The notes beneath the pieces are model-generated. The model was not told the origin of the DNA. It did no database searches and saw nothing but the letters and a program-made list of their open reading frames with translations. A program made the position numbers and the translations under genes. 64,000 nt of DNA, taken from positions 244 to 64,243 of the forward strand of contig JABICB010000013.1 in the NCBI GenBank assembly GCA_018652475.1, given 5' to 3'. How positions within the stretch are numbered: position 1 is the stretch's first letter; each line of letters begins with the position of its first letter. Source of the DNA: an archaeon. Its GTDB lineage: Archaea > Nanobdellota > Nanobdellia > SCGC-AAA011-G17 > PNOQ01. Shown in pieces: positions 18,417-35,571 of this stretch.

Positions 18417-19289
18417 ATGATAATAGAATTATTAATAATCTTAACACTGATCTGGTTAATAGTGGCGTCACTCACAGATATAAAGATAAGAGAAGTACCT
18501 AATTGGTTAAGTTTTAGTTTAATAATAATTGCGATTAGTTTTCAATTAATTAACTCCCTAATAAATAACGATCCAAACATAATCATAACCAGCATAAAGG
18601 GATTTAGTATATTCTTTATTATTGGCAATTTGATGTATTATACCAAACAATGGGGAGGAGGAGATGCAAAGATATTAATGGGGCTTGGGGCAATTTTTCC
18701 AAAATATCCCACGGAATTATCTTCCATTTTTAATCCGGAATTAAATCTCCCATTTTTAATAATCATATTATTAAACATATTAATAGTTGGTGCCATCTAT
18801 AGTTTAATTGCCAGCATAGTTTTAGCAATTAAAAATAAAAATAAATTCAAAAAGGAATTTAATAAAAAAATAAAAAATAAAAAAATAACCTTGGTAAATA
18901 AAAGTATCATCATTTTTTCAGTTATGACTTACATACTATTCCTTTTATTATTAAAAACCACATTAATTCCAGTGATATTTGCAACATTACCTTTGATTTT
19001 ATTTTATTTATGGATAATTATTAGTGTAATAGAAAAGATTAGTATGTATAAAATATTAAAGGTGAATCAACTACGAGAAGGAGATTGGGTAGTAAAGAGA
19101 ATAAAGAATAAAGATAAAATAATCTATACTCCTAATGTAAATGGAATAACAAATAAAGAAATTGAGAAATTAATTAAAAATAATATAAAAAAAGTAACTA
19201 TTAAAGATGGATTACCCTTTTTACCTGCAATACTCTTAGCAGTTATAATAAGTTTAATATTTGGAAATATATTAATGTATATTATCTAA
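18417..19289 (+). CDS. Prepilin / preflagellin peptidase (A24 family, GxGD aspartyl protease; PibD/FlaK-like) with a C-terminal extension.
   Basis: The first catalytic Asp context is ASLTDIKIREVPNWLS. The second is TKQWGGGDAKILMGLG, a GxGD motif. The protein is polytopic. Confidence 0.7.
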   Translation: MIIELLIILTLIWLIVASLTDIKIREVPNWLSFSLIIIAISFQLINSLINNDPNIIITSIKGFSIFFIIGNLMYYTKQWGGGDAKILMGLGAIFPKYPTELSSIFNPELNLPFLIIILLNILIVGAIYSLIASIVLAIKNKNKFKKEFNKKIKNKKITLVNKSIIIFSVMTYILFLLLLKTTLIPVIFATLPLILFYLWIIISVIEKISMYKILKVNQLREGDWVVKRIKNKDKIIYTPNVNGITNKEIEKLIKNNIKKVTIKDGLPFLPAILLAVIISLIFGNILMYII

Positions 19290-19809: not shown

Positions 19810-20856
19810 TTAGGCATCATCCCTGATACCTGCATCCGTAACAAAAAACATACATTCGCCATCTGGAAGACATGGACTATCTACAAGCTTAGCAACCCTT
19901 GAACCCTTTTTACCTCTCCTAAGATACACTCTCGTTGTAGATGCATGTGCTACAATATGACCTCCTATTGCAACAGTAGGATCTCCAAAAAAAGTATCTG
20001 GTTTTGACATCACCTGGTTAGTAATATACACTGCAATATTATGATTTTGGGATAATTTCAACAATACGTGCATGTGCTTATTTAATTTTTGTTGTCTATC
20101 TGCAAGAGTTCCTCTTCCGATAAACTCACTCCTAAAATGACTCATTAATGAATCTACTATTACTAATTTAACATTCAAGCCATCCTTTTTTATTAAATCT
20201 TCAACTTTTTCAGCAAGTAACATCTGATGATCACTATTAAATGCCCTAACTGCCCTAATATTTTTCAATGACCTCATTGGATCAAGACCCATTGCTTTTG
20301 AAATTTGTTCAACCCTTTCCGGACGTAGAGTTCCTTCGGTATCGATCCATACTACTATTGGATCTAAAGTAGGATCATCCCCTAATTCAGTTTGTGTCGA
20401 ACAAACTAACTGGTGTGCTAAGGCAGTTTTACCTGAACCATAGGCACCATAACATTCAGTTATCGAACCAGTCTCAATTCCTCCACCGAGCAATTCATTA
20501 AAATTTTCACTATTTGTTGAGACTCTCGTTACAAGTGCCCTTTTCTTCAATAACTCTTCACCTGATTCAAAACCTATATCAAGATTTTTTCGTGCCACTT
20601 GAATAATTCGTTTAGCAACATTATCTCCCATCCCTGAACTTTCAGTTAATTCTGAGGGACTAGCAACTGCAATACTCATAAGATCATCATAACCAACTTC
20701 TTTCAACTTTTCTGCAGTGGCACTACCCACTCCAGGTAAATCTTCAATAGTCATCTTATCGCTCCCTTTCTTAACAACTGCCTTCTTTTCAACTTTTTTT
20801 AAAGGAGATTCAACTTCAGTTATAGTTTCATTATCTTTTTCTACAATTTCTTTCAT
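19810..20856 (-). CDS. radA: DNA repair and recombination protein RadA.
   Basis: An N-terminal HhH (IEDLPGVGSATAEKLKEVGYDDLMSIA) is followed by a RecA core with Walker A GAYGSGKT and Walker B LVIVDSLMSHFR. Confidence 0.9.
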   Translation of the reverse strand: MKEIVEKDNETITEVESPLKKVEKKAVVKKGSDKMTIEDLPGVGSATAEKLKEVGYDDLMSIAVASPSELTESSGMGDNVAKRIIQVARKNLDIGFESGEELLKKRALVTRVSTNSENFNELLGGGIETGSITECYGAYGSGKTALAHQLVCSTQTELGDDPTLDPIVVWIDTEGTLRPERVEQISKAMGLDPMRSLKNIRAVRAFNSDHQMLLAEKVEDLIKKDGLNVKLVIVDSLMSHFRSEFIGRGTLADRQQKLNKHMHVLLKLSQNHNIAVYITNQVMSKPDTFFGDPTVAIGGHIVAHASTTRVYLRRGKKGSRVAKLVDSPCLPDGECMFFVTDAGIRDDA

Positions 20857-21201: not shown

Positions 21202-21657
21202 TCATACAATTAACAAGATATTGAGAAGAATTAATCCTAAAAAAAACAACCTCTCCATTAATCCTCCTGTTTTTACAATCCCTGCAAATCTCATTCGTAG
21301 AAGGGGATGAAACAATCTGACTCCCTTAATAGTCATAGCATCACTAAACAGATGAGAAAGATATCCTAATAAAAATGCGACAGCAAGAACTTTCTGATCA
21401 ACACTAGATAATAAGAAAAAAACTATGAATGCTGGATAAACACTATGTAAGATGCCCCTATGTCTGAAAAAAAGCCTAAATATCCAGGAAAACACTTTTG
21501 TTTTTTTACTTATCCAACTTTTTGGAATATCTAAGTCTGGAACAAGACTAGCAAAATATAACACTCCTGCAAATATAATCTTATTTTCAATAGAAAAAAA
21601 TTTAAAAATAATTAATGAAACAAGCACTGCAAATGCTAAGTGTGTTTTATACATCAT
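21202..21657 (-). CDS. Membrane-bound metal-dependent hydrolase (YdjM/DUF457-like).
   Basis: Several TM helices with conserved His/Asp (HRGILHS; GYLSHLFSDAMTIKGVRLFHP) are typical of this family. Confidence 0.45.
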   Translation of the reverse strand: MMYKTHLAFAVLVSLIIFKFFSIENKIIFAGVLYFASLVPDLDIPKSWISKKTKVFSWIFRLFFRHRGILHSVYPAFIVFFLLSSVDQKVLAVAFLLGYLSHLFSDAMTIKGVRLFHPLLRMRFAGIVKTGGLMERLFFLGLILLNILLIV

Positions 21658-22646
21658 TATTTCAAAGATTCTAAAACTTCTACAGGATCAGCCCCCTTAA
21701 CTGAATTTGCAACAAATTCTAATCTATCAAAATTAATATTTTTATTAACCCTTCCTTGTATAACCATCTGTTTACCTAATAATTTTTTAGTATATAATTC
21801 CACTTCTTCAGGTTTTAAAACGGATAATTCATTTCCAGACTTGCCAAGTACTTCTTCGGCAAGTTGTGCAAAACAAACAACCCTAATATTCGCAGAAGCA
21901 TCATCAAAGAAAAAATTGAAAACTGGTGATTTTTTAGCAACAACAGTTCCATGATCTTTACAAGACTGAACACCTTCTTGTTCAAGCACCTTTTTTCCAC
22001 ATTTTTCACAAGCATCATAGTATCTAGGTTCATATACTTGAACAATAGTCCCATATATCTCTGCACGATCATCAGCCTTTAGTTCTATTATATTTTTTTT
22101 AGAATAACCAACCTCTGCAGAAACTTGCTTTACTTCACCTATCACTAATCCCTCTGGATTTAATACTGCCTTTCCCCTTGAACCAAGATGTATTTCAAGG
22201 TAACCATTATTATCCCTAGAATATGCATCATTAATTTTTAATATAGAATCTTTTTTTGCATTAACTTTTAAATTATCAATAATTTTTTCATCCCATATAA
22301 CTAATCTAATCACGCCGCTCTCATCTCCAATCGAGCAAAATCCCAATTTTCCTTGTCTCTTAGGAGTATTAAATTCTCTAACTTCGAAATCTGTTAAAAT
22401 TTTTCCGGCAACATTAATTCCATTGACTCCTTTTGCTATTTCAGAAATTTTATAATCCCTAGGGGCAAAATTTTCAAACAATTTTATGCCATACTGATTA
22501 GCGATAATATGTGCTGCGCCTTCTTTACTAATAAGATCAGATAAATTTGCAATTTTTTCAACAATTTTCTTTTCAACTTCTTCTTTAGTGACGCCCTTTT
22601 CAGTTACTATTTTTTCAATAATTTCATCATAATTTAATTTTAACAT
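21657..22646 (-). CDS. rpa: Replication protein A-like ssDNA-binding protein (OB folds plus a Zn ribbon).
   Basis: The OB-fold signature GKLGFCSIGDESGVIRLVIWDEKI matches archaeal RPA (DETG.IR.T.W). A C-terminal zinc ribbon CEKCGKK...CKDHG is present. Confidence 0.65.
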   Translation of the reverse strand: MLKLNYDEIIEKIVTEKGVTKEEVEKKIVEKIANLSDLISKEGAAHIIANQYGIKLFENFAPRDYKISEIAKGVNGINVAGKILTDFEVREFNTPKRQGKLGFCSIGDESGVIRLVIWDEKIIDNLKVNAKKDSILKINDAYSRDNNGYLEIHLGSRGKAVLNPEGLVIGEVKQVSAEVGYSKKNIIELKADDRAEIYGTIVQVYEPRYYDACEKCGKKVLEQEGVQSCKDHGTVVAKKSPVFNFFFDDASANIRVVCFAQLAEEVLGKSGNELSVLKPEEVELYTKKLLGKQMVIQGRVNKNINFDRLEFVANSVKGADPVEVLESLK

Positions 22647-22672: not shown

Positions 22673-23425
22673 TTAGTTATTACATATAAAGACTTCGCCT
22701 TGGAGAGGATTTAATTCATCAAAATCCACTGCGGCCCTTATCTTTATTTGTTCAGTACCCTGTATTGAATCAACAGCATACTCTTTTGAACTAAATATGA
22801 AGACATCTTCCTTAAACTCCCACTCAAACTCTGCAGAAGTTTCCCAACAAGAAATATCCCCATCACATGAATCAATAACAGTAACAACTTCACCAACAAA
22901 ATTAACAAAATCGTCAAAATTATAATCTACTTCAAAATAAACATCGGGAGAAATTGAATAAGTTCCTATTTTAGTACCATTATCTAAAATATCATAATTT
23001 AATTTGTCTGAAGAATGAGCCAAAACAAAAAAAGAATTTTCTTTATCTTCATAAGTAAATGAATAATTAATATTAGTTAAATTATTCAATAAAGCACTGA
23101 ATTCTTTTTTTAACATTTCTTTAGTCGGATAACATTCTAAATTGCCAACCTTCCAAAGATTGAAATCCTTATTATGACTTAATGAAGAACTTCCACCCCT
23201 TTCTAATAAATATCTCAAACTATTTGCACTTTTAAAAGAATAATCTACAAAAAAGAAATCTTTCTCTGCCAGAGTATATGCATCTATGAGTTCTAATTGA
23301 GAATTTCCAAGATATTCAATACGGATATTTTCATGATAATCTACAAATAAAAACATAGATACTCCTATGCCTAACACTGCATACATGAGCACATATAATG
23401 TGAATAAACCTTTTTTTCCTACCAT
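22673..23425 (-). CDS. Pilin-like protein with a class-III signal peptide; last gene of the pilus operon.
   Basis: MVGKKG|LFTLYVLMYAVLGIGVSMFLFV shows a KKG cleavage context followed by a hydrophobic helix. It overlaps the upstream gene. Confidence 0.45.
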   Translation of the reverse strand: MVGKKGLFTLYVLMYAVLGIGVSMFLFVDYHENIRIEYLGNSQLELIDAYTLAEKDFFFVDYSFKSANSLRYLLERGGSSSLSHNKDFNLWKVGNLECYPTKEMLKKEFSALLNNLTNINYSFTYEDKENSFFVLAHSSDKLNYDILDNGTKIGTYSISPDVYFEVDYNFDDFVNFVGEVVTVIDSCDGDISCWETSAEFEWEFKEDVFIFSSKEYAVDSIQGTEQIKIRAAVDFDELNPLQGEVFICNN

Positions 23426-24006
23426 TCAAAACAATCTCCAATGAATCTAATATCTGTATTTATAAGAGAAACATATAAATCAGTTTTGAGTTTTTGTTGT
23501 AAAATACTTCCCTCTAAGCACATATCATCAAAGGCAGGTCCAACTGGATAAGTACAAACAGAATTAATCTCTATAAGTTTCACATCACCTTCTTCATTTG
23601 GTTGAGAGCCTATACTAATTTTATAACCCCTAATATAATTAAGATCATTAATCTCATTACAATAATTGAGATTTTTAAAAATTTCAAAAGTTGATTTCCT
23701 TAAAAAATCACCAAGATCATCATTATCAGATAAATAATATTTTTCAGTTAAGACTGCAATAGTTGTCGATTCAATAATCCCATCCCCATCAAGATCATAT
23801 TCAATAGGTGTACGCAAATAATTTAATAAGTTTAAATTTTCAATAGAATAACCTATCTCTCTTTCCAATAAAAGTTTTTCTTCAACATCTGCCGATTTGA
23901 AATCTCCGAGACTCATAATTAAAACATATGCCAACAATAAGACACCAATTAAAAGGATATTAACTGTCCTTAACATGACAGTAGTTCCATTTTTATTCAA
24001 GAGCAC
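23419..24006 (-). CDS. Pilin-like / pilus accessory protein.
   Basis: MLLNKNGTTVMLRTVNILLIGVLLLAYVLIM is an N-terminal signal-anchor. It overlaps both neighbours. Confidence 0.4.
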   Translation of the reverse strand: MLLNKNGTTVMLRTVNILLIGVLLLAYVLIMSLGDFKSADVEEKLLLEREIGYSIENLNLLNYLRTPIEYDLDGDGIIESTTIAVLTEKYYLSDNDDLGDFLRKSTFEIFKNLNYCNEINDLNYIRGYKISIGSQPNEEGDVKLIEINSVCTYPVGPAFDDMCLEGSILQQKLKTDLYVSLINTDIRFIGDCFEW

Positions 24007-24490
24007 TCACCACCTTAATATTCAAATAACCAGGTGATAAAATTGAATTATTCATATATAAAATATAATTATTAGCAGTATAACAATCAAGATTCGAATT
24101 TTCAAGACCACATAATAACCCTTGACTAGATGCAACAGTATTCACTTCAAAACTTTTTATTATATTCCTATCTATATCCATCAATTCTAATTTGAATCCT
24201 TTTTTAATATGATGATAATCAACACACTCTGATATAATAACTTCATCGAATTTTCTTAAATCAATAATTCCTGGATAACTTCGAATACTATCAGTATAAC
24301 TAAAACAATTAGGAGAAAGAAAAAGATTACTAATTAGCATATGTTTCTCTAAGTCCACTGTGTCTACATCCAAATCCGTATTCATGTATGCTGTCAGAAC
24401 CAGAACACCAAAAACAAATAAAATCAAAATAGAATAAATAACCAAATTCATTTGTTCTTCAGTTAAAAAAATGAATCCTTTCTTATTCAT
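23993..24490 (-). CDS. Pilin-like protein with a class-III signal peptide.
   Basis: MNKKG|FIFLTEEQMNLVIYSILILFVFGVLVL shows KKG|F with an acidic residue shortly after the cleavage point. Confidence 0.5.
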   Translation of the reverse strand: MNKKGFIFLTEEQMNLVIYSILILFVFGVLVLTAYMNTDLDVDTVDLEKHMLISNLFLSPNCFSYTDSIRSYPGIIDLRKFDEVIISECVDYHHIKKGFKLELMDIDRNIIKSFEVNTVASSQGLLCGLENSNLDCYTANNYILYMNNSILSPGYLNIKVVSALE

Positions 24491-24893
24491 ATGTTCTACC
24501 TCCTCTAATAACTAAGGAATTATAAGATTTATTAAAAATTAAAAAATCATAATCTCCTTCAGATATATAATCTTTATCTATATAATTATTATTTGCACAA
24601 TAATTTTTTGAACCAGATAATTCTGGAGTATCCTTTAAATTGACTTCAACCAAACAATTTTGACCAAATTTGATTTCTAATCGGTCTTCATTTTGAAAAA
24701 TAGAATAATTCAAATTAATTGCCCCAGGAGAAATAAACATGACTTCTTCAAGCAGAGATATATCTTTTGCTAAATGTCTCTGATTAAATGCAGTTTCATC
24801 GGCAAGTTTGGCCATAGTAAAAAATAACGCCAATAAAACTAATGTAGTTATAATTAAATATCCTGGCCAAAGATATGTCCTCTCCTCTTCCAT
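24483..24893 (-). CDS. Pilus-operon membrane-anchored protein.
   Basis: Its single N-terminal TM segment is YLIITTLVLLALFFTMA. It overlaps neighbours by 8 and 0 nt. Confidence 0.35.
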   Translation of the reverse strand: MEEERTYLWPGYLIITTLVLLALFFTMAKLADETAFNQRHLAKDISLLEEVMFISPGAINLNYSIFQNEDRLEIKFGQNCLVEVNLKDTPELSGSKNYCANNNYIDKDYISEGDYDFLIFNKSYNSLVIRGGRTYE

Positions 24894-24924: not shown

Positions 24925-25413
24925 TTATTGATTTGATTTGATTTCACGAATGATTACAACACTATCTTTTTTTTCAAGTTCCAAGGTCATATACTCTTTA
25001 GTTTTTGTTAAAATCACACCACTAATATGTTCGCTGTCGAATTCTAAAATATTTTCAAAAACAGAATAAAACGGTGGAGAAAGACAAGATTCTTGACCTC
25101 CTGACGTTGAACAAACTGCAAGACAAGCATTATTAGAGCACCCTGTTGGTTTTAATATAGCATCTGATTTTTTAGAAAACCCCGAATCAAAACTCACTAG
25201 TTTATAACCCTTATCTAAATAAAATAAAGTATTGGTTTTTTCAAGATTAGATAAATCTTTAATTAATAAATCTAACTGATCCATTGATCTTTCAGTTAGC
25301 TCTAATCCATCTTGGAAAAAGATACCCCACATCACACCCCCAACTTTAATGGATAAAAACAAACCTGCAAGACCTATAACCAATCCAAATATTAATTTAA
25401 TACTTACTTTCAC
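24925..25413 (-). CDS. Pilus-operon membrane-anchored protein (GTG start).
   Basis: The N-terminal TM segment is KLIFGLVIGLAGLFLSI. The start codon GTG overlaps the stop of the upstream small ORF (GTGA). Confidence 0.35.
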   Translation of the reverse strand: MKVSIKLIFGLVIGLAGLFLSIKVGGVMWGIFFQDGLELTERSMDQLDLLIKDLSNLEKTNTLFYLDKGYKLVSFDSGFSKKSDAILKPTGCSNNACLAVCSTSGGQESCLSPPFYSVFENILEFDSEHISGVILTKTKEYMTLELEKKDSVVIIREIKSNQ

Positions 25414-25580
25414 TGCATTGCCCCAGTAACATTTAACTCAGTGAAGGAAAATATACTTTTCATAAAATTTTCAAATACTCCAAAAAACTCACTAATCTGT
25501 TCATTAAAAATAAAAATAATAAGAACAAGAACTATCACCGCAATTATACTCACAACGATAGTTTCTAAAGTAATATTCAT
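25410..25580 (-). CDS. Small (56 aa) pilin-like protein missing from the ORF track.
   Basis: Manual translation of the minus strand gives MNITLETIVVSIIAVIVLVLIIFIFNEQISEFFGVFENFMKSIFSFTELNVTGAMQ*. It has a single N-terminal hydrophobic helix. It fills the gap between 25413 and 25602 and overlaps the next gene by 4 nt. Confidence 0.35.
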   Translation of the reverse strand: MNITLETIVVSIIAVIVLVLIIFIFNEQISEFFGVFENFMKSIFSFTELNVTGAMQ

Positions 25581-25601
25581 AGGACACCTTCAGACAGTTT
25601 A

Positions 25602-25955
25602 TTAGCAACCGCCTTCATTTGTGATGGCACTACATGTCACACCTAGTTGACTGCAGGTCTTAGTCACATCAATCTTTCCATCAAAATCAGTATCTAGTTC
25701 ATAAGTTTTTTCACCACAAAAATTATCCTTATAATCTTCTAATCCTATTAATTCATAATTTGAACAGAAACCATTACATTCAGCAATTGCTTGTTGAGTA
25801 TCTATTGGTTGTGCACCATACATTGATTTTATTTTACCCACTATATTGGTCATTCCGCCCGTAAAAAATGCAGCAATTATTACTAATGCTAGAATTGCCA
25901 GGATCGCAATGATAATAGTATTCATTGAAAGACTTTGACCTTTTTTATTATTCAT
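25602..25955 (-). CDS. Archaeal type IV pilin (class-III signal peptide); the best major-pilin candidate.
   Basis: MNNKKG|QSLSMNTIIIAILAILALVIIAAFF is a textbook archaeal KG|Q prepilin-peptidase site followed by a hydrophobic helix. The mature part is small with Cys pairs. Confidence 0.6.
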   Translation of the reverse strand: MNNKKGQSLSMNTIIIAILAILALVIIAAFFTGGMTNIVGKIKSMYGAQPIDTQQAIAECNGFCSNYELIGLEDYKDNFCGEKTYELDTDFDGKIDVTKTCSQLGVTCSAITNEGGC

Positions 25956-25987
25956 TATAACACCTCAATACAAACCTACAAAAATGA

Positions 25988-26194
25988 TTATTTAAACTTT
26001 TTGGTATTATTTTCCTCTAACTTATATTTATAATATTTTTTGAATAAAGGAAAATAATGTAAGACTCTTATCCAGAGAGGTAAGACTATCATACTATCTT
26101 CAATATGTTCCTTTAATTTATCCCTACTTTTATCAAGGCTATCTCTTAAATTAATCCCATTTACAGTGATAAAATTATCGTTTATAGGTATCAT
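25988..26194 (-). CDS. Hypothetical small protein within the pilus operon.
   Basis: 68-aa ORF with no TM, tightly packed between operon genes. Confidence 0.25.
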   Translation of the reverse strand: MIPINDNFITVNGINLRDSLDKSRDKLKEHIEDSMIVLPLWIRVLHYFPLFKKYYKYKLEENNTKKFK

Positions 26195-26198
26195 TATA

Positions 26199-27374
26199 TT
26201 ATATTATATGTGGAGAAGAGTTCTCTCCCAAAACAGATGAATCTGTGACTCCTAAGTTATTATTATGATTATTTAAAATATTCATTTTTTCTTGATATTG
26301 TGAATAAGTTATACTTTTTCCATTATAATATTTTAACCAAATATCAAATATATCTTGGGTTGTATAAATTTGTTCACCTGAATAATTATTTAATAAATGA
26401 GAATATGCTAAAGCTATTGCAAACTCATTATCATTGATTAAGACAGCAGAAATTTTTTCATTATTCCAATCTATCGAATCATAACCATACACATCGACAA
26501 TTTCTTCACCTTCAAAGCCATTTAATGCATCATAAACTGACCTAAATCCATTAAATTCTAACATAGACAGTCCTTTTTTATTTCCCCCCATATAAACAGA
26601 TTTAGAAGGATCATATACAATATTAGTATTAATGAATATGCCGGAATCATAAGATTCTATAAAAATTATGCCCTTGAGTAAATTTGCTAAATTGTTATTT
26701 ATATCAAGATTTAATGACACCAAAGAAATTAAATTATTTAATGAAGAAATTCTCACAGAAGAATCAAAACTACTCAATGCATCATCTTTATCTTCGAAAG
26801 ATTCATCTTTCTGTGAACATTCTAAAGTTAATAAATCATATTCTTTTGCAACTGATTCAGAGATAATACAAATATTGTCTGAAACTTTATAAAACAATAA
26901 AGAAGAATCGAAATTACCTTCGAATTCATCAATATGTAGATCATTAGTTCCATACAATAATATTAATTGACCAACATTTAAATCAATAGCCGATTTCCAG
27001 GGTTCGAGAATAAAACAAAAAGAACTATCTAGTGTTCTCTCAACTAGTTCGAGTTTAGGTGTATTTAATTTTAATAATGAATGCATACCTTTCTTTTCAA
27101 TCAATAAAGAATAACCAGTAGGATATCCAATTTCAGATTTTGTACAAAAACAATTATTACTTTCATCTTCTGCACAAAGAGAAAGTAGTAAAAATGTATC
27201 TTCAAAAATATCCCTGGCATCTTTTTGTGTAGATATTTCTTCTTGTGTGATAAAAAGATCCCATTCAAATTTATGGCCTAAGGTAGTGAGAGTATCAGAT
27301 CCCCACCACCCTACTACTACAACCAACACAACAATCAAAATAGCAGAAATTATTTGTTTTAAAGTTAAACTCAT
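26199..27374 (-). CDS. Pilus-operon membrane-anchored protein (391 aa).
   Basis: The N-terminal TM segment is IISAILIVVLVVVVGWWG, with a large extracytoplasmic domain. The start ATG overlaps the stop of the upstream small ORF. Confidence 0.35.
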   Translation of the reverse strand: MSLTLKQIISAILIVVLVVVVGWWGSDTLTTLGHKFEWDLFITQEEISTQKDARDIFEDTFLLLSLCAEDESNNCFCTKSEIGYPTGYSLLIEKKGMHSLLKLNTPKLELVERTLDSSFCFILEPWKSAIDLNVGQLILLYGTNDLHIDEFEGNFDSSLLFYKVSDNICIISESVAKEYDLLTLECSQKDESFEDKDDALSSFDSSVRISSLNNLISLVSLNLDINNNLANLLKGIIFIESYDSGIFINTNIVYDPSKSVYMGGNKKGLSMLEFNGFRSVYDALNGFEGEEIVDVYGYDSIDWNNEKISAVLINDNEFAIALAYSHLLNNYSGEQIYTTQDIFDIWLKYYNGKSITYSQYQEKMNILNNHNNNLGVTDSSVLGENSSPHII

Positions 27375-27532
27375 TAGCCCCCACCAAACCTAAACACTGT
27401 TTTGAAATCAATAAATAAATTTGCTAATGTTCCTTTATGTTGCCAAGTAATTACAATAAGAATAACTAATAAGATTATTGCAAGTAAAAAAATTCCTATT
27501 TGATCCCAAGTTAATTCTGCTCTTCTATTCAT
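27374..27532 (-). CDS. Small (52 aa) pilin-like protein missing from the ORF track.
   Basis: Manual translation gives MNRRAELTWDQIGIFLLAIILLVILIVITWQHKGTLANLFIDFKTVFRFGGG*. The start ATG overlaps the upstream stop (ATGA). The stop TAA overlaps the downstream ATG. Confidence 0.4.
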   Translation of the reverse strand: MNRRAELTWDQIGIFLLAIILLVILIVITWQHKGTLANLFIDFKTVFRFGGG

Positions 27533-28344
27533 TGATTACAAGCCCCCATCACTTCATTAGCAGGACCAATATACATTCCTGACACAAAGCCTGTTTTCCT
27601 ATGGAGATCATCATGTGCCAAGATAAGGGCTCCAGCAATACCGCAAGTATACGCTGCAACAGTTAAAGTCGTACCAAATGTGAAAAATGCGGCGGCGGCG
27701 GAAGCAATACATCCTATTCCCGCAGTAACTGTTTCAAAAGTATCTGATTCAAACTCATATCTCTTATCGGCAAAAAATACAACATAAAGCGGCTCAGTAG
27801 TAGAATAATTATCAGTTTCACTAATTTGTCCCACACTAGTATCAGCATAAATATAGTCAAATAAACTCTGTTCTTCCCTGAAGGGGAGTGGCTCTGTGGC
27901 CAGATATTTCATCAACCCGCTAATCTGAGGAGTTTCCTCTTGAATTTTATCACTAAATTCAATCCTGGAACAGATAAAACAATAATTATTACCAGTTCCC
28001 CAATCCCAATCATCTAGAAAATCCCTTTCACCTTTTGCAAATTGATACCAACAATCATACATTTCATTAGAAATTTCAGATTTTATACCTTCTTCATTTA
28101 AATTTTTTATTTTTAATTCATGAGTTTCGCATGCAAGATTTTCGAAAGTAGTTGTTCCTAACAGTTTACTTTGTGCTCTTAAAAAAACACTATCTCTGCA
28201 AGCTTCACGGCTAACACTATCTTCAGCAAAAGGTCCAAATTCAAACAAAAAAAAATAAATGAAAATACCCATTGCCAACATAAGTACTATTACTCCTGCA
28301 ATAGTCATAGCCATCTCGCCTTTTTTAGATACCAAACAATCCAA
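27529..28344 (-). CDS. Pilin-like protein with a class-III signal peptide.
   Basis: MDCLVSKKG|EMAMTIAGVIVLMLAMGIFIYFFL shows a KKG|E cleavage context. An AAAAA stretch and Cys residues occur in the mature part. Confidence 0.5.
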   Translation of the reverse strand: MDCLVSKKGEMAMTIAGVIVLMLAMGIFIYFFLFEFGPFAEDSVSREACRDSVFLRAQSKLLGTTTFENLACETHELKIKNLNEEGIKSEISNEMYDCWYQFAKGERDFLDDWDWGTGNNYCFICSRIEFSDKIQEETPQISGLMKYLATEPLPFREEQSLFDYIYADTSVGQISETDNYSTTEPLYVVFFADKRYEFESDTFETVTAGIGCIASAAAAFFTFGTTLTVAAYTCGIAGALILAHDDLHRKTGFVSGMYIGPANEVMGACNQ

Positions 28345-28477
28345 CTCCTTTTTTTATGATCATATATAAAATAAACAAAGTAAGTAAAATAAATAATAGT
28401 TTGAATGCATTATTTAAAAAACTATTAACTTCGCCCATTTTCTATGTTGAAATATTTTCTTAAATTTATAAAACTTG

Positions 28478-30607
28478 TTAAAATGTAGGTAAAATAGATG
28501 AGGCCAACATACTAAATAAAAGCATGACAATTAAGGAGATTAATAAATAAAGAGTGGTACTTTTTATTAAATTTGATCCAACCTCTGATTGTTCATTAAT
28601 TTTGTCTGGTCCATGTTCAATACCACTAGAAAGAATTGTTAATAGATAAACAATCTGAACAACATATATTCCTACAATTATCTGAAAAAAATAGCTAGGA
28701 ATAGTATCTACCTTATTGAATAATTCAGACATTGCACCCATACCTCCAGTAAAAGTCTGATCACCCTCCATAGTATGTTCAGTCATTATAGATAATTTAG
28801 AGATAACACCCACAATCATCGTGGAGATACCTACAACTATTCCAGCAATGATGGGAGTAAGAAATTTAATTTGACCTTTCATACTGGAAATAATGTCTGC
28901 CAATAAATCTTTTAATCTTTCATTAATTTTATGAATTTTACTTATATAATCTGAAATACTGATTAGTGCTCGAGAAACAACCTGTGGACCTTTATGTGAA
29001 CTTTCAACTAAAACTTCCATAGAACTTTCAATCAAAGGAGTATTATAATTTATTATTGCACCCCTTTCACTATCAAAAATAGCTTCCTTAAGATTCATTC
29101 CACCCTGAGTCAAATTTACATGAATCTTACTAAAAAAATCTCCTGTAGATGTACCTCCCATATTTTCTGCGACATCTTTGAATGCAGACTCAGTAGGAAT
29201 TCCATCCCCAATACGCGTACCTAACTGGAATAAACTAACAGAAAATTCAGATTCTAATTTTTTTATTTCCTTACGAATTTTTCTAGCATCCTTTGTTTTT
29301 GAAGTGAAATATATGCCTGCTCCTACTGCAATCCCTAATGGTAAAAAAAGGCTAAGTAATGCAGCGCCTAAACCAAAAGGACCATAACACTTACCTGTGT
29401 TGAAACATTCAAAATCCAAAAACTTTTCACCCATAAAATTCATATCAAAACCAGGATTAACAGTGTGCAAAATAAATGGTAAAGTACCTAATAATGTGAA
29501 AAGTATAAGTAAAAAAACAGCAAGAGCAGTTGTTCCTTTTTTTGATTTTACTTCTACTGAATTTGCACCATAACCAGTAGGTCGTTGACTAAGTATATTT
29601 GTTCCCATACTATAAACCATTACAGGGAGAATTAAATTGTATAAGAATGCCAAATGCCACCATTGCACTAAACCACCCATAAAACTACCAATTAATGGAA
29701 AAATTACAAGGCCTAAGATTGGTAAAATAACTCCAAGCATATATAACATAGTAATCGGATTTTTCAAATCATGTGCATATTTTAACATACGTTCATATGT
29801 CCCATCCAATATTAATTTTAAACTCTTATCAAGTAATTCAATCCTTCTTTCTTCATTTGGTTCATATAAACTACTCTCTATTAAATGAAATGAATTGACA
29901 AATTCTAAATTATAATCCCTCCATTTAGAAAGATAAAACTCTAAGGATTCTTTCATTGTTGAAAATTTTCCAGTTTCAACATCCCAAAATATTTTCCTAA
30001 GATCTAAAGATAAGGGTGCTCTAATATGGTCTGCAGCAAATTTAAGAGCATTTTCTAAGTTAGAAGTATGTCTCATATAAATAACAATATATAATATACA
30101 TAAAACCATCTGATTACTTGCTTGAAGCCTCCAACGATTAGCTAAACGTATGGGGATCTTTGTAAGTGATTTGAGCGATACTAGTGCGCCCACTACAAAA
30201 AGGAAAGATAACATCAATACAGAACTATTATTGAAAACAAAGTATCCTATGCCCCCTATAAGTACTGCAACAAACATAAATAACGATGCAACAAACATTG
30301 AAAAACTAGCTGCACTAGTAGGAGTTATTTTGAGATGTGTAAATTTTATTGATTCTTCAAGTTGAGTGGAATCTTGTTCAGAAGGTGTAATTTTTATAAT
30401 ACTTTCAGCAAAACTACAAAGTTTTTCATATGTTGAAACTCCTGTAGCCATATATTCTTTTTTAAAAGATTCATATTCTTTAGAAAATCCCGAACTAGGA
30501 GTATAATCTCTAATTTCTTCAGTAGATATATTAGCATCTAATTTAGATTTATACTTATTTAATATTTTTTGTAGTTCCTTTTCGGAAATAGCCATAATGC
30601 ACCTCAA
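28478..30607 (-). CDS. FlaJ/TadC/GspF-like polytopic membrane platform protein of a type IV filament system.
   Basis: At 709 aa it has two blocks of TM helices separated by cytoplasmic domains, as in FlaJ/TadC. Its start overlaps the stop of the upstream ATPase by 4 nt. Confidence 0.65.
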   Translation of the reverse strand: MRCIMAISEKELQKILNKYKSKLDANISTEEIRDYTPSSGFSKEYESFKKEYMATGVSTYEKLCSFAESIIKITPSEQDSTQLEESIKFTHLKITPTSAASFSMFVASLFMFVAVLIGGIGYFVFNNSSVLMLSFLFVVGALVSLKSLTKIPIRLANRWRLQASNQMVLCILYIVIYMRHTSNLENALKFAADHIRAPLSLDLRKIFWDVETGKFSTMKESLEFYLSKWRDYNLEFVNSFHLIESSLYEPNEERRIELLDKSLKLILDGTYERMLKYAHDLKNPITMLYMLGVILPILGLVIFPLIGSFMGGLVQWWHLAFLYNLILPVMVYSMGTNILSQRPTGYGANSVEVKSKKGTTALAVFLLILFTLLGTLPFILHTVNPGFDMNFMGEKFLDFECFNTGKCYGPFGLGAALLSLFLPLGIAVGAGIYFTSKTKDARKIRKEIKKLESEFSVSLFQLGTRIGDGIPTESAFKDVAENMGGTSTGDFFSKIHVNLTQGGMNLKEAIFDSERGAIINYNTPLIESSMEVLVESSHKGPQVVSRALISISDYISKIHKINERLKDLLADIISSMKGQIKFLTPIIAGIVVGISTMIVGVISKLSIMTEHTMEGDQTFTGGMGAMSELFNKVDTIPSYFFQIIVGIYVVQIVYLLTILSSGIEHGPDKINEQSEVGSNLIKSTTLYLLISLIVMLLFSMLASSILPTF

Positions 30608-32886
30608 TTGTTAATATATTTCTTAAACCAATCTTCCCATAGGAAAAAGATTTTTTTACTATTTAAAGCTCCCTCTTTTTTTAACACATCCTGGGAAATT
30701 TTATGAAATTTATCATTTGACAAAATAACAGATTTAGCCTCTAATATATCTGGCCTTTCTAATTTTTTAGAGTAATCCACTATTGTTTGTTTTATTTTAC
30801 CCCTTAATTGAATGTTATCCATCACTGCATCCCAATCCCCAACCCATTCTTTCACAGTACTTGCAATACTTTTTATAATTTCAGAATCTCCATTTATTAA
30901 ATTATCAGTGGGTTCCAATTGATCAGTTTCAACATTATATTTCATAAGATCTACAAATCCATCTTCTTTCAATGGATCATCTGACCAATTTTTTCTAACT
31001 TCAGTTATGCTTAAAACTCTCCTAATTTTATTTAATCCATCTGGAGTTTTTATTGGATTAACAATTATAATTAAATCTGTGGCCTTGAAACTTGTTCGCG
31101 GAACACCAAGGTCATTAACAACCCTATCATAAACAGCATAAGGACTACCTCCATGTATAGTTCCAGCAACAACATTTGCAAGAGCACCAACCCTCATAGC
31201 CTCATATAGTGCTAAAGCTTCCGTACTTCTTATCTCACCAACAATCAAACTACTATCTCCTAATCTTAAACTAGTTCTTATTCCTTCTTCAGCAGACATC
31301 TCTGATCCCCCTGTAGCTAGTGCTGCCCTAACTTTCATAGGTTGAATATTGAAACCTTCTTCCCTGAGAGATTTGACTGGCAACTCCAAAGTATCTTCTA
31401 CAGTAATAATTCTATATTTCCTCATAATCTCCACTAAACAAGAACCCAGTAATGAAGTTTTACCACTACTTCTCGTTCCAGCAACAATCATAGTTCTACC
31501 TCCATCTATCATGAAACTCAAAAGTCCTGCAGCATAAGAATTAATCATCCCATTATTAATGAAAAGAGGTAATGTCCAAGGGTGTTCCCTGTGTCTCCTT
31601 ATTGCATATGCATATCCTAATGGATTAAGAGGCCTACCAATTATTGCAACTCTTGCTTGACCTCCGGGGACTTCTAAATTTGTATCTAAAACTGGATTTG
31701 CTTCATCAAGAGGACGACCACTTATCATTCTAAATTTAGTTGCCCATCCTTCCCCATCTTCCCTACTAGGAATAATATTTGTAACGCATTCCCCAAAATC
31801 CTGATGAACAATATACATTGGAGTTTCGCCAATAGGCCCATTAATTACTATATCTTGTATTTTACTATCTTTCAATAAAACTTCTAATAGTCCAAAACCT
31901 ACAGTGTACCTTACTAAAATTTCTGCAAGAGTGGTAATTTCATCATAAGGTAAAAACATCCCTTTATGTTCTGCTAATTCGACAAGTAAATCCCTCCCTA
32001 TATTAAAAAACGTTCTTCTCATTTTTTGAGGATCGACAAATTCTTCAGAAGTTGGTTTATGTTCTGCTAAAACAGATCTTGCTAAATCTAATAATTCAGA
32101 TTTATCTTCTCGAAGATTGAACTCTGGAGGATTTAAATGATAAATGGGTTTAATATCTTTTTCAGTTTCAAAGATAGTTACAGCAGTCAAACTATCAAGA
32201 CTGTATGCATCTAATTCAACGCCATCTAAGGGGACATCAGACATCAATCTAGTAAACATGAAATTTGGAGAAATTAATGGTCTAAATAAATTTGAATAGA
32301 TTGCCCTATCTCCTATTTCATGACCTTCAACATAATCTTTAGTAATAGAAATTAATTTTGTTCTATCCAGCATCTCAATAGTTTGTATTAATAAATTTAA
32401 GTATGCCTTTTCATCTCTTGCAACTACTTCGGAATTAATTTTTGAAAGTCTTATTTTTTGTTCTCTGATTAATCTTTTTACTTCTACATATGCGCCAACG
32501 GGATCACTTTTTAAAAGATTATTAATAAGATATTGTAAATTAGAAAACTGAGAGGGGTTTGTTCGAAAATATTCAGGAGATGCACCTGCTACCAATCCAC
32601 TCAAAATTCTTTTTTGTTTTAATAAATAAGTATAAAGATTTGCTATTTCCCTCAGTAATGACACTTGTTCAGGCCCATATTGGTAATTTTTTTCGGCAGA
32701 AAGTATTAACCTATTGACAGTAGGAACTTCAATTAATTTATTGATAACATCTGCCATACAAACCTTACTAGTAGAGATAGAGGGAGAATATGAAACTCCG
32801 AGCATATTAATTTTCATTACACTAGTCTGGCCTTCTTCAATAAGGCTATACTCTCCCGGTTTAATCTTTTTTTTAAATTCTGCCAT
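30604..32886 (-). CDS. Type IV filament secretion ATPase (FlaI/GspE/VirB11/TadA superfamily) with a roughly 250-aa N-terminal extension.
   Basis: Walker A MIVAGTRSSGKTSLLG and Walker B ITVEDTLELP, plus the Asp/His boxes, are typical of VirB11/FlaI ATPases. It is the first gene of the operon. Confidence 0.85.
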   Translation of the reverse strand: MAEFKKKIKPGEYSLIEEGQTSVMKINMLGVSYSPSISTSKVCMADVINKLIEVPTVNRLILSAEKNYQYGPEQVSLLREIANLYTYLLKQKRILSGLVAGASPEYFRTNPSQFSNLQYLINNLLKSDPVGAYVEVKRLIREQKIRLSKINSEVVARDEKAYLNLLIQTIEMLDRTKLISITKDYVEGHEIGDRAIYSNLFRPLISPNFMFTRLMSDVPLDGVELDAYSLDSLTAVTIFETEKDIKPIYHLNPPEFNLREDKSELLDLARSVLAEHKPTSEEFVDPQKMRRTFFNIGRDLLVELAEHKGMFLPYDEITTLAEILVRYTVGFGLLEVLLKDSKIQDIVINGPIGETPMYIVHQDFGECVTNIIPSREDGEGWATKFRMISGRPLDEANPVLDTNLEVPGGQARVAIIGRPLNPLGYAYAIRRHREHPWTLPLFINNGMINSYAAGLLSFMIDGGRTMIVAGTRSSGKTSLLGSCLVEIMRKYRIITVEDTLELPVKSLREEGFNIQPMKVRAALATGGSEMSAEEGIRTSLRLGDSSLIVGEIRSTEALALYEAMRVGALANVVAGTIHGGSPYAVYDRVVNDLGVPRTSFKATDLIIIVNPIKTPDGLNKIRRVLSITEVRKNWSDDPLKEDGFVDLMKYNVETDQLEPTDNLINGDSEIIKSIASTVKEWVGDWDAVMDNIQLRGKIKQTIVDYSKKLERPDILEAKSVILSNDKFHKISQDVLKKEGALNSKKIFFLWEDWFKKYINN

Positions 32887-32967: not shown

Positions 32968-33366
32968 ATGGATTCAAAATCAAACAATTTACAAAATCAG
33001 CAGCCAGAACAGGGCATGAATTTAATGATACTAAACAATAGATTGAGAATATTAGAAGAAAGATATAGTACTAATAGGGAAAGAATGTTTGTAATGAATC
33101 AAAATATGATTGAACATTATAAAAAAATAAATTTTGATATTTCTTCATTGAATAAAGAAATGAAAGAATTAAAAGATGAAATTTTCACAATAAAAGAAAC
33201 TGTAAAACATTTAGTTCAAGAATTAGATAATTTTGCAAGAAAAGAACAACTAAAAGTTTTAGAAAAATATATTAATATGTGGAATCCATTTAACTATGTT
33301 ACAGAAGAAGAAGTAGAAAAAATAATAGAAAGGAAGAGGTCAAAGAATGTTAAATCAAAAAAATAA
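32968..33366 (+). CDS. Hypothetical coiled-coil protein, divergent from the pilus operon.
   Basis: Helical heptad-rich sequence. The ORF overlaps the next gene by 20 nt. Confidence 0.3.
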   Translation: MDSKSNNLQNQQPEQGMNLMILNNRLRILEERYSTNRERMFVMNQNMIEHYKKINFDISSLNKEMKELKDEIFTIKETVKHLVQELDNFARKEQLKVLEKYINMWNPFNYVTEEEVEKIIERKRSKNVKSKK

Positions 33367-34030
33367 TCAAAAACAAAATCCAATAAATGAAGTCTCACAA
33401 ATGAAACAAAAAGGCCTAACTAATGAACAAATAATAGGCGAATTAAAAAACAAATCTTATTCTCATGATCAGATAGTTTCGGCTATGGATCAATCAATAA
33501 TAAAACAAGAGGCGGAAAAACCAATAGAATCTGGAAATCCTCTGCCCCCTTCAGGAGGACCAGGACAAGGAGTTCCACTACAATTACCTAGTGCGCCCTC
33601 TCCTTCAAAAAATATAAAAGAAGAACGAGTTCCAGTAACCACTGTACAACCGAATCTTCCAGTTATACAAGAATCACAAATGCCCATAGAAAGACCTAAC
33701 TATGAGATGGTTGAAGAAATTGCTGAATCAGTTGTTAGAGAAAAATGGGAAATACTATTAAATAATTTAGGAAGCATAAATGCTTGGAAAGAAAGGACGA
33801 ATCACGATATTCAATCAATAAAACAAGAAGTTTTGAGAACTCAGCAAAGATTTGATAATTTACAAGCCGCAGTACTGGGACAAGTTAAAGAATATGGAGA
33901 TGGAGTAAAAAATATTGGAGCAGAAATTCAAGCAATTGAAAAGGTATTAGAAAAAATAGTTACACCACTCTCAACAAATATAAAAGAATTGTCTAGAATC
34001 ACGGAAGAGTTAAAAAAGAAAAAGAAATGA
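33347..34030 (+). CDS. Hypothetical protein with a Pro/Gly-rich linker and a C-terminal coiled coil.
   Basis: The middle segment is PLPPSGGPGQGVPLQLPSAPSPS. A long C-terminal helix follows. Confidence 0.3.
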   Translation: MLNQKNNQKQNPINEVSQMKQKGLTNEQIIGELKNKSYSHDQIVSAMDQSIIKQEAEKPIESGNPLPPSGGPGQGVPLQLPSAPSPSKNIKEERVPVTTVQPNLPVIQESQMPIERPNYEMVEEIAESVVREKWEILLNNLGSINAWKERTNHDIQSIKQEVLRTQQRFDNLQAAVLGQVKEYGDGVKNIGAEIQAIEKVLEKIVTPLSTNIKELSRITEELKKKKK

Positions 34031-34567
34031 TTATACATTATCTGAAATATTTTTTATTAGAAAGAAAGATATTAAAAGAATAAAAAAAGCCCCTAATACT
34101 CTGGGGTGAAATATTGTTCTTAATACATCACTAGTTCCTTCTACAGAATAAGGATTAAATACAGGACCAAACACTTTAGTAATTCCTATAATTAAAAAAA
34201 GCATCATTACAACAAATATAGTCAGTCTTCCTCCAACCATTGGCCAAACTTCTTTTTCATCAAATCCGAAAAACATAAACATACTAAATAAAAGCAATAA
34301 AAAAAACATCATGAATACATACCATGGAACAACAAACACCATTAATTTAATTGCACTACCTGAAAAAAGAGATATAAATGCAATAACTAAACTAATAGAA
34401 AAATTCAATCCGCTATTTTCTCCAAGAAGTTTGGTTTTTTCTAAAGTAGCATATAATAAAGTAACAATTAAAATAAATACAAAGACTGGTAAAAAATTCA
34501 TCAAGGAAGTAGGGTCTATCATTTTATCTCTTTTTAATCCATACCACAAAAGCAACTGATAATCCAA
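34031..34567 (-). CDS. Integral membrane protein; member 3 of a tandem paralog triplet.
   Basis: FLPVFVFILIVTLLYATLEKTKLLGEN is conserved with the N-terminal cores of the two upstream paralogs. About 5 TM helices. Confidence 0.45.
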   Translation of the reverse strand: MDYQLLLWYGLKRDKMIDPTSLMNFLPVFVFILIVTLLYATLEKTKLLGENSGLNFSISLVIAFISLFSGSAIKLMVFVVPWYVFMMFFLLLLFSMFMFFGFDEKEVWPMVGGRLTIFVVMMLFLIIGITKVFGPVFNPYSVEGTSDVLRTIFHPRVLGAFFILLISFFLIKNISDNV

Positions 34568-35033
34568 TCAACAACATTACAGATACAACTTCATTACTTA
34601 CATCAAACAATCGATTATACCCATATTGATAAGGAATAAATGACCAAATTGCAGCTCCAACTGCAATAATTGCTGCTAAACCAAATGGGGCAGCAATATT
34701 ATCTCCAGATTTTCCTGTGACTGTTGCTATTAATAACATCATCATTATAGACATAACAATTATTAATGCCATTTTAGATAAATAATTATTCATAAGGATA
34801 ATAACATCAGTATTTATTATTAACATTAATCCTAGTACTGCTGAAAAAAGCAGATTAATATTTGTTTTAGGTACACTAGTAGCAGTAGCTCCAGTACCTG
34901 TTTTAAAAACTCCAAAAATTTGAGATTTTTCTAATACAGCAAAAATTACTGTAAATATTAATAAAAAAGGCAAAACAAACTCATAAAAACCCATGCTTTC
35001 TAATTGATAAAGTAATGAATATAAATTAACCAT
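34524..35033 (-). CDS. Integral membrane protein; member 2 of the tandem paralog triplet.
   Basis: FYEFVLPFLLIFTVIFAVLEKSQIFG aligns with FDVVLPFLLVFAIIFAILEKTFILG of the upstream gene. Confidence 0.45.
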   Translation of the reverse strand: MVNLYSLLYQLESMGFYEFVLPFLLIFTVIFAVLEKSQIFGVFKTGTGATATSVPKTNINLLFSAVLGLMLIINTDVIILMNNYLSKMALIIVMSIMMMLLIATVTGKSGDNIAAPFGLAAIIAVGAAIWSFIPYQYGYNRLFDVSNEVVSVMLLIGLSVAFVVWIKKR

Positions 35034-35571
35034 TCACTTTTCCTCCTTTTGTTATAAAATATAACACTCCACCCATAACAACCAAAAATATGAATATTCC
35101 AGCTATGGGCTCAGTGAATGAACCTAACTTACTTAATAATAAACTTAAGGCGCTTACTCCTTCGAATTTAATTGCACTAGCAAATATTGCTAACAATCCA
35201 ACAAACATCATAATAGTAAACAAAGTATACCATCCTTTATGTTTATCAAGAAGATCTAACTCGCCAGTTTTTAAAAAAACTCCAATCATCATCAGAAATG
35301 AAACAGAAACTATAATTAATAAAACTACATTCGGCAAAGCCTCATTTAAAGCACTAACAACTTTATTCGTTGCAACAGCTAACATTGCAATAACAAATGC
35401 TACAATAGAATTAAGATTCTTTTTTGGTGCGCCATCGGTTTCCTTTCCAAGAATGAACGTTTTTTCTAATATTGCAAAAATAATTGCAAAGACTAATAGA
35501 AAGGGCAATACTACATCAAACATGCCAAAGTCTTTCATAAATTCAATTGATTGTTGTAAAGTTGAAACCAT
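35026..35571 (-). CDS. Integral membrane protein; member 1 of the tandem paralog triplet.
   Basis: Shared N-terminal motif (F/M)(D/E)(F/V)VLPFLL.F..IFA.LEK(S/T). About 5 TM helices. It overlaps the next paralog. Confidence 0.45.
   Translation of the reverse strand: MVSTLQQSIEFMKDFGMFDVVLPFLLVFAIIFAILEKTFILGKETDGAPKKNLNSIVAFVIAMLAVATNKVVSALNEALPNVVLLIIVSVSFLMMIGVFLKTGELDLLDKHKGWYTLFTIMMFVGLLAIFASAIKFEGVSALSLLLSKLGSFTEPIAGIFIFLVVMGGVLYFITKGGKVNG

Follow-up and report, generated by a model that had tools for sequence, protein, structure and literature searches.

Two mini-genes in a conserved type IV pilus-like operon of Woesearchaeota probably encode headless members of the pilin family

Pilins without a globular domain, minor pilins and pilus genes that overlap one another are already well known. 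The small pilins of Methanococcus maripaludis are made as precursors of 67-76 amino acids (aa), with mature lengths of 54-63 aa; they include the major pilin MMP1685, and a further small pilin, MMP1283, is essential for piliation (PMC3875500). The EppA substrates of Methanococcus carry Gln at position +1 and Glu at position +5 of the mature protein (PMC3875500), and an acidic residue at +5 is also found in bacterial type IV pilins. The Epd major pilin has no globular domain, like the bacterial Tad pilins, and a census of archaeal type IV filament (TFF) systems finds its 'system 1' in DPANN archaea (bioRxiv 10.64898/2026.04.22.720090). Archaeal minor pilins have been placed near the pilus base by a study whose main text makes no mention of DPANN or Woesearchaeota (Makarova et al. 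2016, PMC4858521). A full-text literature search on type IV pili and pilins of Woesearchaeota brought up four papers, none of which names these subjects in its title or abstract, although a passing mention of the two families in them is possible. The present work concerns two mini-genes of 52 and 56 codons, here called m52 and m56, which belong to a pilus-like operon on a 64,000-nucleotide (nt) stretch of archaeal DNA (GenBank assembly GCA_018652475.1, contig JABICB010000013.1, positions 244 to 64,243). This whole stretch is referred to as the window.

Both open reading frames (ORFs) exist as given in the preliminary description of this DNA. The 52-aa product, MNRRAELTWDQIGIFLLAIILLVILIVITWQHKGTLANLFIDFKTVFRFGGG, begins MNRRAELTWDQIGIF and ends FRFGGG, and the 56-aa product, MNITLETIVVSIIAVIVLVLIIFIFNEQISEFFGVFENFMKSIFSFTELNVTGAMQ, begins MNITLETIVVSII and ends GAMQ. 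When the two gaps between the neighbouring genes were subjected to mononucleotide shuffling, an ORF of that length appeared on the same strand in 27 of 20000 shuffles for m52 (0.14%) and in 143 of 20000 for m56 (0.7%). Among the contigs examined, from JGI and a number of ENA assemblies, identical copies of the 52-aa protein are encoded on 12 and identical copies of the 56-aa protein on 6. In the nearest relative species, represented by an 85.5-kb JGI contig, the two proteins are 83% and 80% identical to those of the window and again have 52 and 56 aa; the gene order is the same, and so are the junctions of -4, -1 and -4 nt (negative values denote overlaps). Pairwise Nei-Gojobori ratios of nonsynonymous to synonymous substitution (dN/dS) are 0.07-0.24 for m52, 0.12-0.53 for m56 and 0.07-0.40 for m37, another mini-gene of the operon. 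Absence of conservation in orthologous operons, or frame disruptions in other strains, had been named in the preliminary description as observations that would speak against the genes. The comparison with such operons found both ORFs conserved, with the same lengths and overlaps. Both ORFs are genuine small genes of the pilus operon, with purifying selection acting on their frames.

The annotation status of the two genes differs between databases. The GenBank record has consecutive accessions for the 162-aa protein (MBT4334562), the 117-aa protein (MBT4334563), the 391-aa protein (MBT4334564) and m52 itself (MBT4334565, HOD61_01990). Missing from it are the 56-aa, 68-aa and 37-aa genes, that is, three of the four small genes of the operon, all of which are called by JGI and ENA. 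The earlier statement that both genes had been missed is thus correct for m56 in GenBank and incorrect for m52, and both are present in the JGI and ENA calls. In the same way, the suggestion that small genes of this kind are systematically lost to length cut-offs agrees with the GenBank annotation and disagrees with the other two.

The mini-genes share strand and operon with the genes for a T2SSE-family ATPase and a 705-aa polytopic membrane protein, and this arrangement is kept in dozens of loci. On the minus strand, the order is ATPase, 705-aa protein and then about 12 proteins with a single N-terminal hydrophobic helix (Table 1). Conservation was followed in 80 species-level loci from GTDB genomes, retrieved with a profile of the 705-aa platform protein and all from metagenome-assembled genomes (MAGs) of DPANN/Woesearchaeota type. 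Plus-strand gene chains were built downstream of the platform anchor, and small ORFs were assigned to three hidden Markov model (HMM) families by best score and position. This best-of-three assignment replaced unconstrained HMM iteration, which drifted to all leader-plus-helix proteins (103-147 matches, several per locus).

The operon architecture is strikingly constant across these loci. The platform gene is followed by a mini-gene of 35-47 aa, a pilin-like gene of 260-330 aa, m52 of about 50 aa, a gene of 200-400 aa, a Cys-rich pilin gene of about 120 aa, m56 of 48-72 aa, five more genes for membrane-anchored proteins, and finally RPA. The m52 family is present in 37 of the 63 loci that reach far enough, at a median distance of 993 nt from the platform gene; it overlaps the upstream gene by 4 nt in 21 of 41 cases and the downstream gene by 1 or 4 nt in 20 of 41. 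Members of the m56 family were found in 25 of the 51 loci of sufficient extent, with a 4-nt overlap to the next gene in 12 of 27 cases. All homologues found in the 80 loci lie downstream of the platform gene and on the operon strand. Lengths, positions and overlaps persist through dozens of species, as far as those whose platform protein is about 50% identical, and 37 of the 44 loci with at least 5 kb of downstream sequence contain one or more leader-plus-helix ORFs no longer than 90 aa. With a shallow m52 profile, HMMER was run exhaustively against 1.84 billion cluster representatives and returned 26 proteins at E <= 1e-3. As all 26 are small (49-64 aa) and are matched end to end, m52 is a stand-alone small-protein family and not a fragment of a larger protein.

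Two other origins of the m52 frame were considered and ruled out. It is not the split N-terminus of the 391-aa gene, because an N-terminal helix is already present in the 391-aa protein, which in some species has a leader as well. Nor is it the frameshifted tail of the 268-aa gene, as the 268-aa protein ends in a conserved ...CNQ-stop.

Judged from the alignment of its family, m52 appears to be built like the class III (type IV prepilin) signal peptides of archaea. In the window, the leader reads MNRRA/E (the slash marks the predicted cleavage site), the predicted mature peptide has 47 aa, and Asp is found at +5. Motif statistics were drawn from 59 distinct family sequences. A leader of the type [KR][KR][GAS] is present in 58 of these, mostly with a length of 4-5 residues, and the predicted mature length in the family is 43-47 aa. 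Asp or Glu occupies +1 in 46 of the 58 and +5 in 52, Trp is found at +4 in 38, and Gln at +1 in only 2. Gly-Lys at +8/+9 precedes an uncharged core with a median of 18 residues, which is followed by a basic patch and an amphipathic tail, with R-F-G at or near the C-terminus in 36 of 58 sequences. The AlphaFold2 (AF2) model of the single m52 sequence consists of one continuous helix from residue 3 to 31, a kink and a second helix from 33 to 49, with a predicted local distance difference test (pLDDT) score of 83.

In hhalign, the m56 family matches the 49 N-terminal positions of the 117-aa pilin family (KKG/QGLS[MV]NTIII) with a probability of 99.2% (E 1e-19), and m52 aligns with the 117-aa pilin at 94.6% and with m56 at 97.6%, values that have to be read in the light of the partly compositional nature of profile similarity between short hydrophobic helices. 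We read m56 as a duplicated pilin gene that would have been stripped of the globular Cys-rich domain with its DxDxDG motif. The protein is hydrophobic from about +3 to +25, except for the Glu6-Thr7 pair. Most orthologues keep a leader, for example MQDKKG/QGLSVETLII, with the general pattern KKG/QGLSxET, and often have Gln at +1 and Glu at +6.

The gene m37, overlooked in the preliminary description, is the third conserved mini-gene of the operon. It encodes a single helix, and its last 11 nt are shared with the start of the 268-aa gene. A single-helix ORF of 31-53 aa occupies its position in 34 of 76 loci, and distant orthologues carry a KRG/Q leader.

The junctions of m52 and m56 are consistent with translational coupling on one or both sides. 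The 268-aa gene (or its 271-aa alternative, which starts from an upstream TTG at 28344) overlaps m52 by 4 nt in the sequence ATGA, contributed by the conserved ...CNQ-TGA end of the 268-aa protein. The overlap between m52 and the 391-aa gene is 1 nt (TAATG), and that between m56 and the GTG-started 162-aa gene is 4 nt (GTGA). Upstream of m56 there is no overlap, and instead a 21-nt spacer with an AGGTG Shine-Dalgarno (SD)-like site 4 nt from the ATG. The preliminary description had locked each mini-gene to both of its neighbours; it was right about the three overlaps and the GTG start, and mistaken about the upstream side of m56. The overlapped starts have poor SD sites: GTGAT at a distance of 15 nt for m52, AGGT at 13 nt for the 391-aa gene, and none for the 162-aa gene. 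Since the downstream SD sites are weak or missing and the overlaps are conserved across species, coupling by termination and reinitiation is likely for the pairs 268-aa/m52, m52/391-aa and m56/162-aa.

These overlaps allow coupling, without showing equal stoichiometry or an equimolar output of the operon. From the ATPase gene to the 250-aa gene, 7 of the 13 junctions are overlaps (-1, -4, -4, -7, -8, -11 and -14 nt, of which -8, -14 and -7 nt link the 136-, 165-, 195- and 250-aa genes), and the other 6 are spacers of +4 to +39 nt. The frequency of overlaps is not significantly higher than for the same-strand junctions in the rest of the window (7 of 13 against 11 of 36, Fisher p = 0.18). It had been proposed that overlaps link nearly every gene from the ATPase onwards, which is not borne out by these counts. 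The further proposal of strictly coupled, stoichiometric translation likewise exceeds what the data show, with only about half of the junctions overlapping and the 117-aa gene preceded by a 32-nt spacer and by GAGGTG, the best SD site of the operon. This spacer and SD site are the opposite of obligatory coupling.

Taken together, we consider it probable that m52 and m56, real genes of a TFF operon that extends across Woesearchaeota, encode headless pilin-family peptides. Each would be little more than the hydrophobic alpha-1 helix with which type IV pilins begin, followed by a short amphipathic tail and no globular domain. The m52 protein would be made as a prepilin with a basic leader of 4-5 residues, which the A24 peptidase, encoded 6 kb away, may remove at the cytoplasmic face to release a peptide of 43-47 aa with an acidic residue at +5. 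It could then act as a low-abundance minor pilin or as an assembly-priming subunit, and its helix would pack against the remaining pilin-like products of the operon, either at the platform or in the base or core of the filament. The conserved RFG tail may provide a specific contact with a conserved partner. The m56 gene would go back to a duplicated N-terminal portion of the 117-aa pilin gene next to it, and in the clade of the window its product presumably stays in the membrane as a helix and functions without cleavage by the peptidase. Coupling would tie the synthesis of each mini-protein to that of its neighbour.

The two frames could in principle be spurious readings of spacers, or encode unrelated small hydrophobic peptides of toxin-like or holin-like type, as they are short, hydrophobic and of low complexity, match no curated family, and in the case of m56 are absent from GenBank. 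The probability of this is minimal, since it is effectively refuted by the conservation of lengths, positions and overlaps in dozens of species, by dN/dS values well below 1, and by the specific motifs at the N- and C-termini. Several observations count against headless pilins, beside the compositional share in the profile scores already mentioned. The m52 family was not detected in 26 of the 63 loci, mostly the most distant ones. The m52 and m56 proteins of the window have no match in Pfam or NCBIfam scans, and their orthologues stay below the gathering scores of Flp1_like (PF16982; at most 24.4 bits against 33.5 in a detailed scan, best family E 3e-7) and DUF7554 (19.8 bits against 25 in the same scan, best family E 4.7e-5). 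Canonical pilins are hydrophobic from +1, whereas the uncharged core of m52 starts only at about +10, after the polar stretch E-L-T-W-D-Q-I-G-K. Lys and Arg are about equally frequent on the two sides of its helix (3.2 versus 2.9), so that the prepilin topology, with the N-terminus inside, is not assured. The m56 frame is under more relaxed selection within the clade of the window (dN/dS 0.34-0.53). Its product is leaderless there, with the initiator Met at the mature position +1 (MNITLET), and the corresponding starts in the 80% identical relative and the three next-closest species are leaderless too (MNISIET, MRLALES, MGLTIES and MRLALDT). A longer form is excluded by an in-frame TGA 12 nt upstream. 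Without a prepilin leader, the m56 protein of the window is not a conventional processed pilin, and the earlier designation of both genes as pilin-like stands for m52, because of its leader, and for m56 as a pilin N-terminus, with this reservation.

Part of these observations would be accounted for if one or both mini-proteins were derived from pilins and yet never entered a filament, which we regard as unlikely, and as the main alternative. They would then be small bitopic components of the assembly machinery that stay in the membrane, in contact with the platform, the ATPase or the neighbouring 268-aa and 162-aa proteins, and PilN/PilO and GspL/GspM, the bitopic assembly-platform proteins of bacteria, would be their functional analogues. 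The archaellum offers further analogues in FlaF and FlaG, whose archaellin-like N-terminal helix is not cleaved off. In a pilin tail exposed on a filament, strict conservation of a C-terminal motif would be unusual; such a motif fits better with a machinery contact, and the RFG of m52, together with the fixed length, suggests specific docking. The near-equal flanking charges do not favour the prepilin topology, and in the different species each mini-gene shares its tight overlap with one particular larger neighbour. Comparison of the window clade (the window and loci L012, L013 and L017) with loci L018 and L019 indicates that the leaders of the m37, 391-aa, m56 and 162-aa proteins have gone, and those of the 268-aa, m52, 117-aa, 165-aa, 195-aa and 250-aa proteins have been kept. 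As purifying selection persists after the loss, processing appears dispensable for the four leaderless proteins. However, 58 of 59 m52 sequences keep a class III leader, usually with the acidic +5, for which there would be no reason in a protein that is never processed, and small headless pilins are proven filament or minor-pilin parts in Methanococcus and in bacterial Tad systems (PMC3875500; bioRxiv 10.64898/2026.04.22.720090). It is also conceivable, and very unlikely, that m52 is the major filament subunit, a Flp-like pilin of about 46 aa, which would leave the 117-aa Cys-rich protein as a minor or tip pilin. The mature size would be in the class of the small Flp (Tad) pilins (PMC3875500) and below the 62-aa Epd major pilin, and m52 is the small component most often recognised among the loci. 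Its weak SD site and overlapped start, however, fit low, coupled expression rather than high, independent expression, and it is the 117-aa gene that has its own spacer, the best SD site, high conservation and invariant Cys residues. A last reading is improbable as a whole and combines three elements. The processed acidic N-terminus and RFG tail of m52 would bridge the platform and the 268-aa pilin-like protein, making m52 a lineage-wide machinery adaptor; the four simultaneous leader losses would record pilins becoming fixed stator or anchor parts in the membrane; and the apparatus would be a DNA-uptake (competence-like) pilus of genome-reduced DPANN archaea, which is suggested by the RPA gene that follows the cluster in 28 of 42 loci and by RadA further downstream in the window. 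On balance, headless pilins of a conserved operon remain the preferred explanation of m52 and m56.

Table 1. Pilus-like operon and other features of the window (a slash marks the predicted leader cleavage site)
Feature	Length (aa)	Position (strand)	Start	Remarks
Secretion/pilus-assembly ATPase	760	30604-32886 (-)		T2SSE Pfam match, 55 bits; FlaI/TadA-like NCBIfam matches
Candidate platform protein	705	28478-30595 (-)		Polytopic membrane protein; role assigned by context
m37 mini-gene	37	28325-28438 (-)		MGEVNSFLNNAFKLLFILLTLFILYMIIKKGVGLFGI; directly downstream of the platform gene
Prepilin-like gene	268	27529-28335 (-)	TTG	Leader SKKG/EMAMT
m52 mini prepilin-like gene	52	27374-27532 (-)	ATG	
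Membrane-anchored protein	391	26199-27374 (-)		Leaderless in the window clade
Small ORF	68	25988-26194 (-)		No hydrophobic helix; window clade only
Candidate major pilin	117	25602-25955 (-)		Leader KKG/QSLSMNT; hydrophobic helix; small Cys-rich domain
m56 mini-gene	56	25410-25580 (-)	ATG	Putative headless paralogue of the adjacent 117-aa pilin
162-aa gene	162	24925-25413 (-)	GTG	Leaderless here; KKA/D leader in orthologues
Four further operon genes	136, 165, 195, 250	22673-24893 (-)		
RPA		21657-22646 (-)		Archaeal marker
RadA		19810-20856		Archaeal marker
A24 prepilin peptidase (FlaK/PibD-like)	290	18417-19289 (+)		Presumed processing enzyme
Two coiled-coil-type proteins	132, 227	32968-34030 (+)		Divergent from the ATPase gene; first with weak FlaC_arch match
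Three polytopic membrane proteins	178, 169, 181	34031-35571 (-)		Alike N-termini; no Pfam match
tRNA		61921-61995 (+)		Sole Rfam match in the window

The window has 29% G+C and is about 90% coding. Its source record is a MAG listed by NCBI as 'archaeon', with locus tags of the type HOD61_, and its closest relatives in public data are MAGs that carry the label Candidatus Woesearchaeota, Nanoarchaeota or 'archaeon'. The 705-aa protein has more than 3,200 homologues with 50-82% identity, and no Pfam, NCBIfam or PDB sequence match, T2SSF included. It represents a large uncurated family in the platform position, and its context suggests a platform role. In scans of both proteins and family alignments, no pilin-like protein of the operon exceeded the threshold of any Pfam or NCBIfam model. 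When m52, m56, the 117-aa pilin and the platform protein were compared with the PDB by sequence and by profile, only chance matches came up, for example to designed helices and G protein-coupled receptors. The match of the A24 peptidase to Peptidase_A24 has 60 bits against a cut-off of 26.5, and FlaK_Arch is matched with an E value of 8e-22; the gene is syntenic in the 85-kb relative. Of the four genes at the end of the operon, three encode proteins with prepilin leaders (KKG/F, KNG/T and KKG/L).

The head of the 117-aa pilin contains six invariant Cys residues and a DxDxDG (calcium-loop-like) motif in a very small domain. Its AF2 model, made without an alignment, has a pLDDT of 59.5 and is too poor for fold classification. 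An internal promoter before the 117-aa gene was considered, as the TATA-like sequence TTTAAATA is located 41 nt upstream. Since matches of this type occur 7 times in 11 kb of the strand, which has 29% GC, the sequence is not evidence for a promoter. The 68-aa ORF between the 391-aa and 117-aa genes is conserved in the closest clade only (6 loci). The 391-aa gene is interrupted in two near-identical strain contigs from different ENA assemblies, L002 (291-1466) and L003 (246-1421), by a change of codon 139 from TTA to TAA, which splits it into parts of 138 and 252 aa; there are 2 differences in 1176 nt. The stop is either a nonsense polymorphism or a shared error. The adjacent codon 138 is variable as well (Ile to Lys), in L001 and L005.

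On the far side of the operon, 42 loci extend far enough to show what comes after the last pilin-like gene. In 28 of them it is an RPA gene on the same strand, and in 8 of these 28 the two genes overlap by 7 nt. In the window, RPA is followed by genes for a YdjM-like membrane protein, a 79-aa protein and RadA. The linkage of pilus genes and RPA may hint at DNA uptake, or may be nothing more than a gene order that persists because the genome is compact. The arrangement of coiled-coil and polytopic membrane proteins on the other side of the ATPase gene is also found in the 85-kb relative, and these proteins may belong to the pilus locus as accessory components.

DPANN archaea presumably require contact with host cells, and their pili are candidate devices for attachment or exchange. 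Censuses of archaeal pili in DPANN genomes will undercount the components, because GenBank lacks three of the four small genes of this operon and because Pfam and NCBIfam do not cover its pilin-like proteins. The m52 family may serve as a simple marker for this operon type, with a [KR][KR][GA] leader, Trp at +4, Asp or Glu at +5, a C-terminal RFG and a length of 49-64 aa. The presence of two or three bare-helix pilins in a conserved machine, one of them able to dispense with its leader, constrains models of assembly. The general picture of pilus systems is unchanged by these data, which amount to a sound correction of the annotation and a small-protein result in an understudied lineage, and should not surprise specialists.

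Among the described systems, the small pilins of Methanococcus are similar to the window proteins in being very small class III proteins with a short leader that ends in Gly, an acidic residue at +5 and no globular domain, and in belonging to a pilus system with many pilin-like genes. However, the window proteins are shorter (47 aa for mature m52, 56 aa for the leaderless m56). In m52, position +1 is Asp or Glu and not the Gln of EppA (DUF361) substrates, and the Glu of the m56 orthologues is at +6. The polar residues of m52 from +1 to +9 with Trp at +4, the conserved C-terminal RFG and the lack of a significant Pfam pilin match are further differences. In addition, the platform of the window is one 705-aa protein and not the product of two genes, and the small pilins of Methanococcus are mostly encoded away from the main operon.

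The bacterial Flp/Tad pilins are likewise small, with no globular domain, little beyond one helix and processing by an A24-family peptidase. In contrast to them, m52 comes from an archaeon and looks like a coupled, low-expression minor component rather than a major subunit. The Flp motif is a site of the G/XXXXEY type, with Tyr at +6, and is not present in m52, which has no Tyr at this position. The minor pilins of type IV pili and of type II pseudopili are low-abundance proteins that are thought to prime or cap filament assembly. The window operon resembles these systems in having several pilin-like genes in one operon, with products made up of leader and helix. Globular domains of 100-300 aa are usual in the minor pilins known so far, and the mini-proteins of the window are bare helices, for which a minor-pilin role is proposed.

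The archaellum proteins FlaF and FlaG, finally, have an N-terminal membrane anchor and are an essential, non-filament part of a TFF system (FlaF is monotopic: PMC4425475). The m56, 162-aa and 391-aa proteins, which have no leader in the window clade, compare well with them. Unlike the window proteins, FlaF and FlaG have beta-sandwich domains; there is no sequence relation between the two groups, and m52 differs from FlaF and FlaG in keeping a leader of the cleavable type. With respect to all these comparisons, the two genes represent new small families among the known headless pilins and not a new kind of system. What stands out are minor variants, namely the RFG tail of m52 and the clade-specific loss of leaders.

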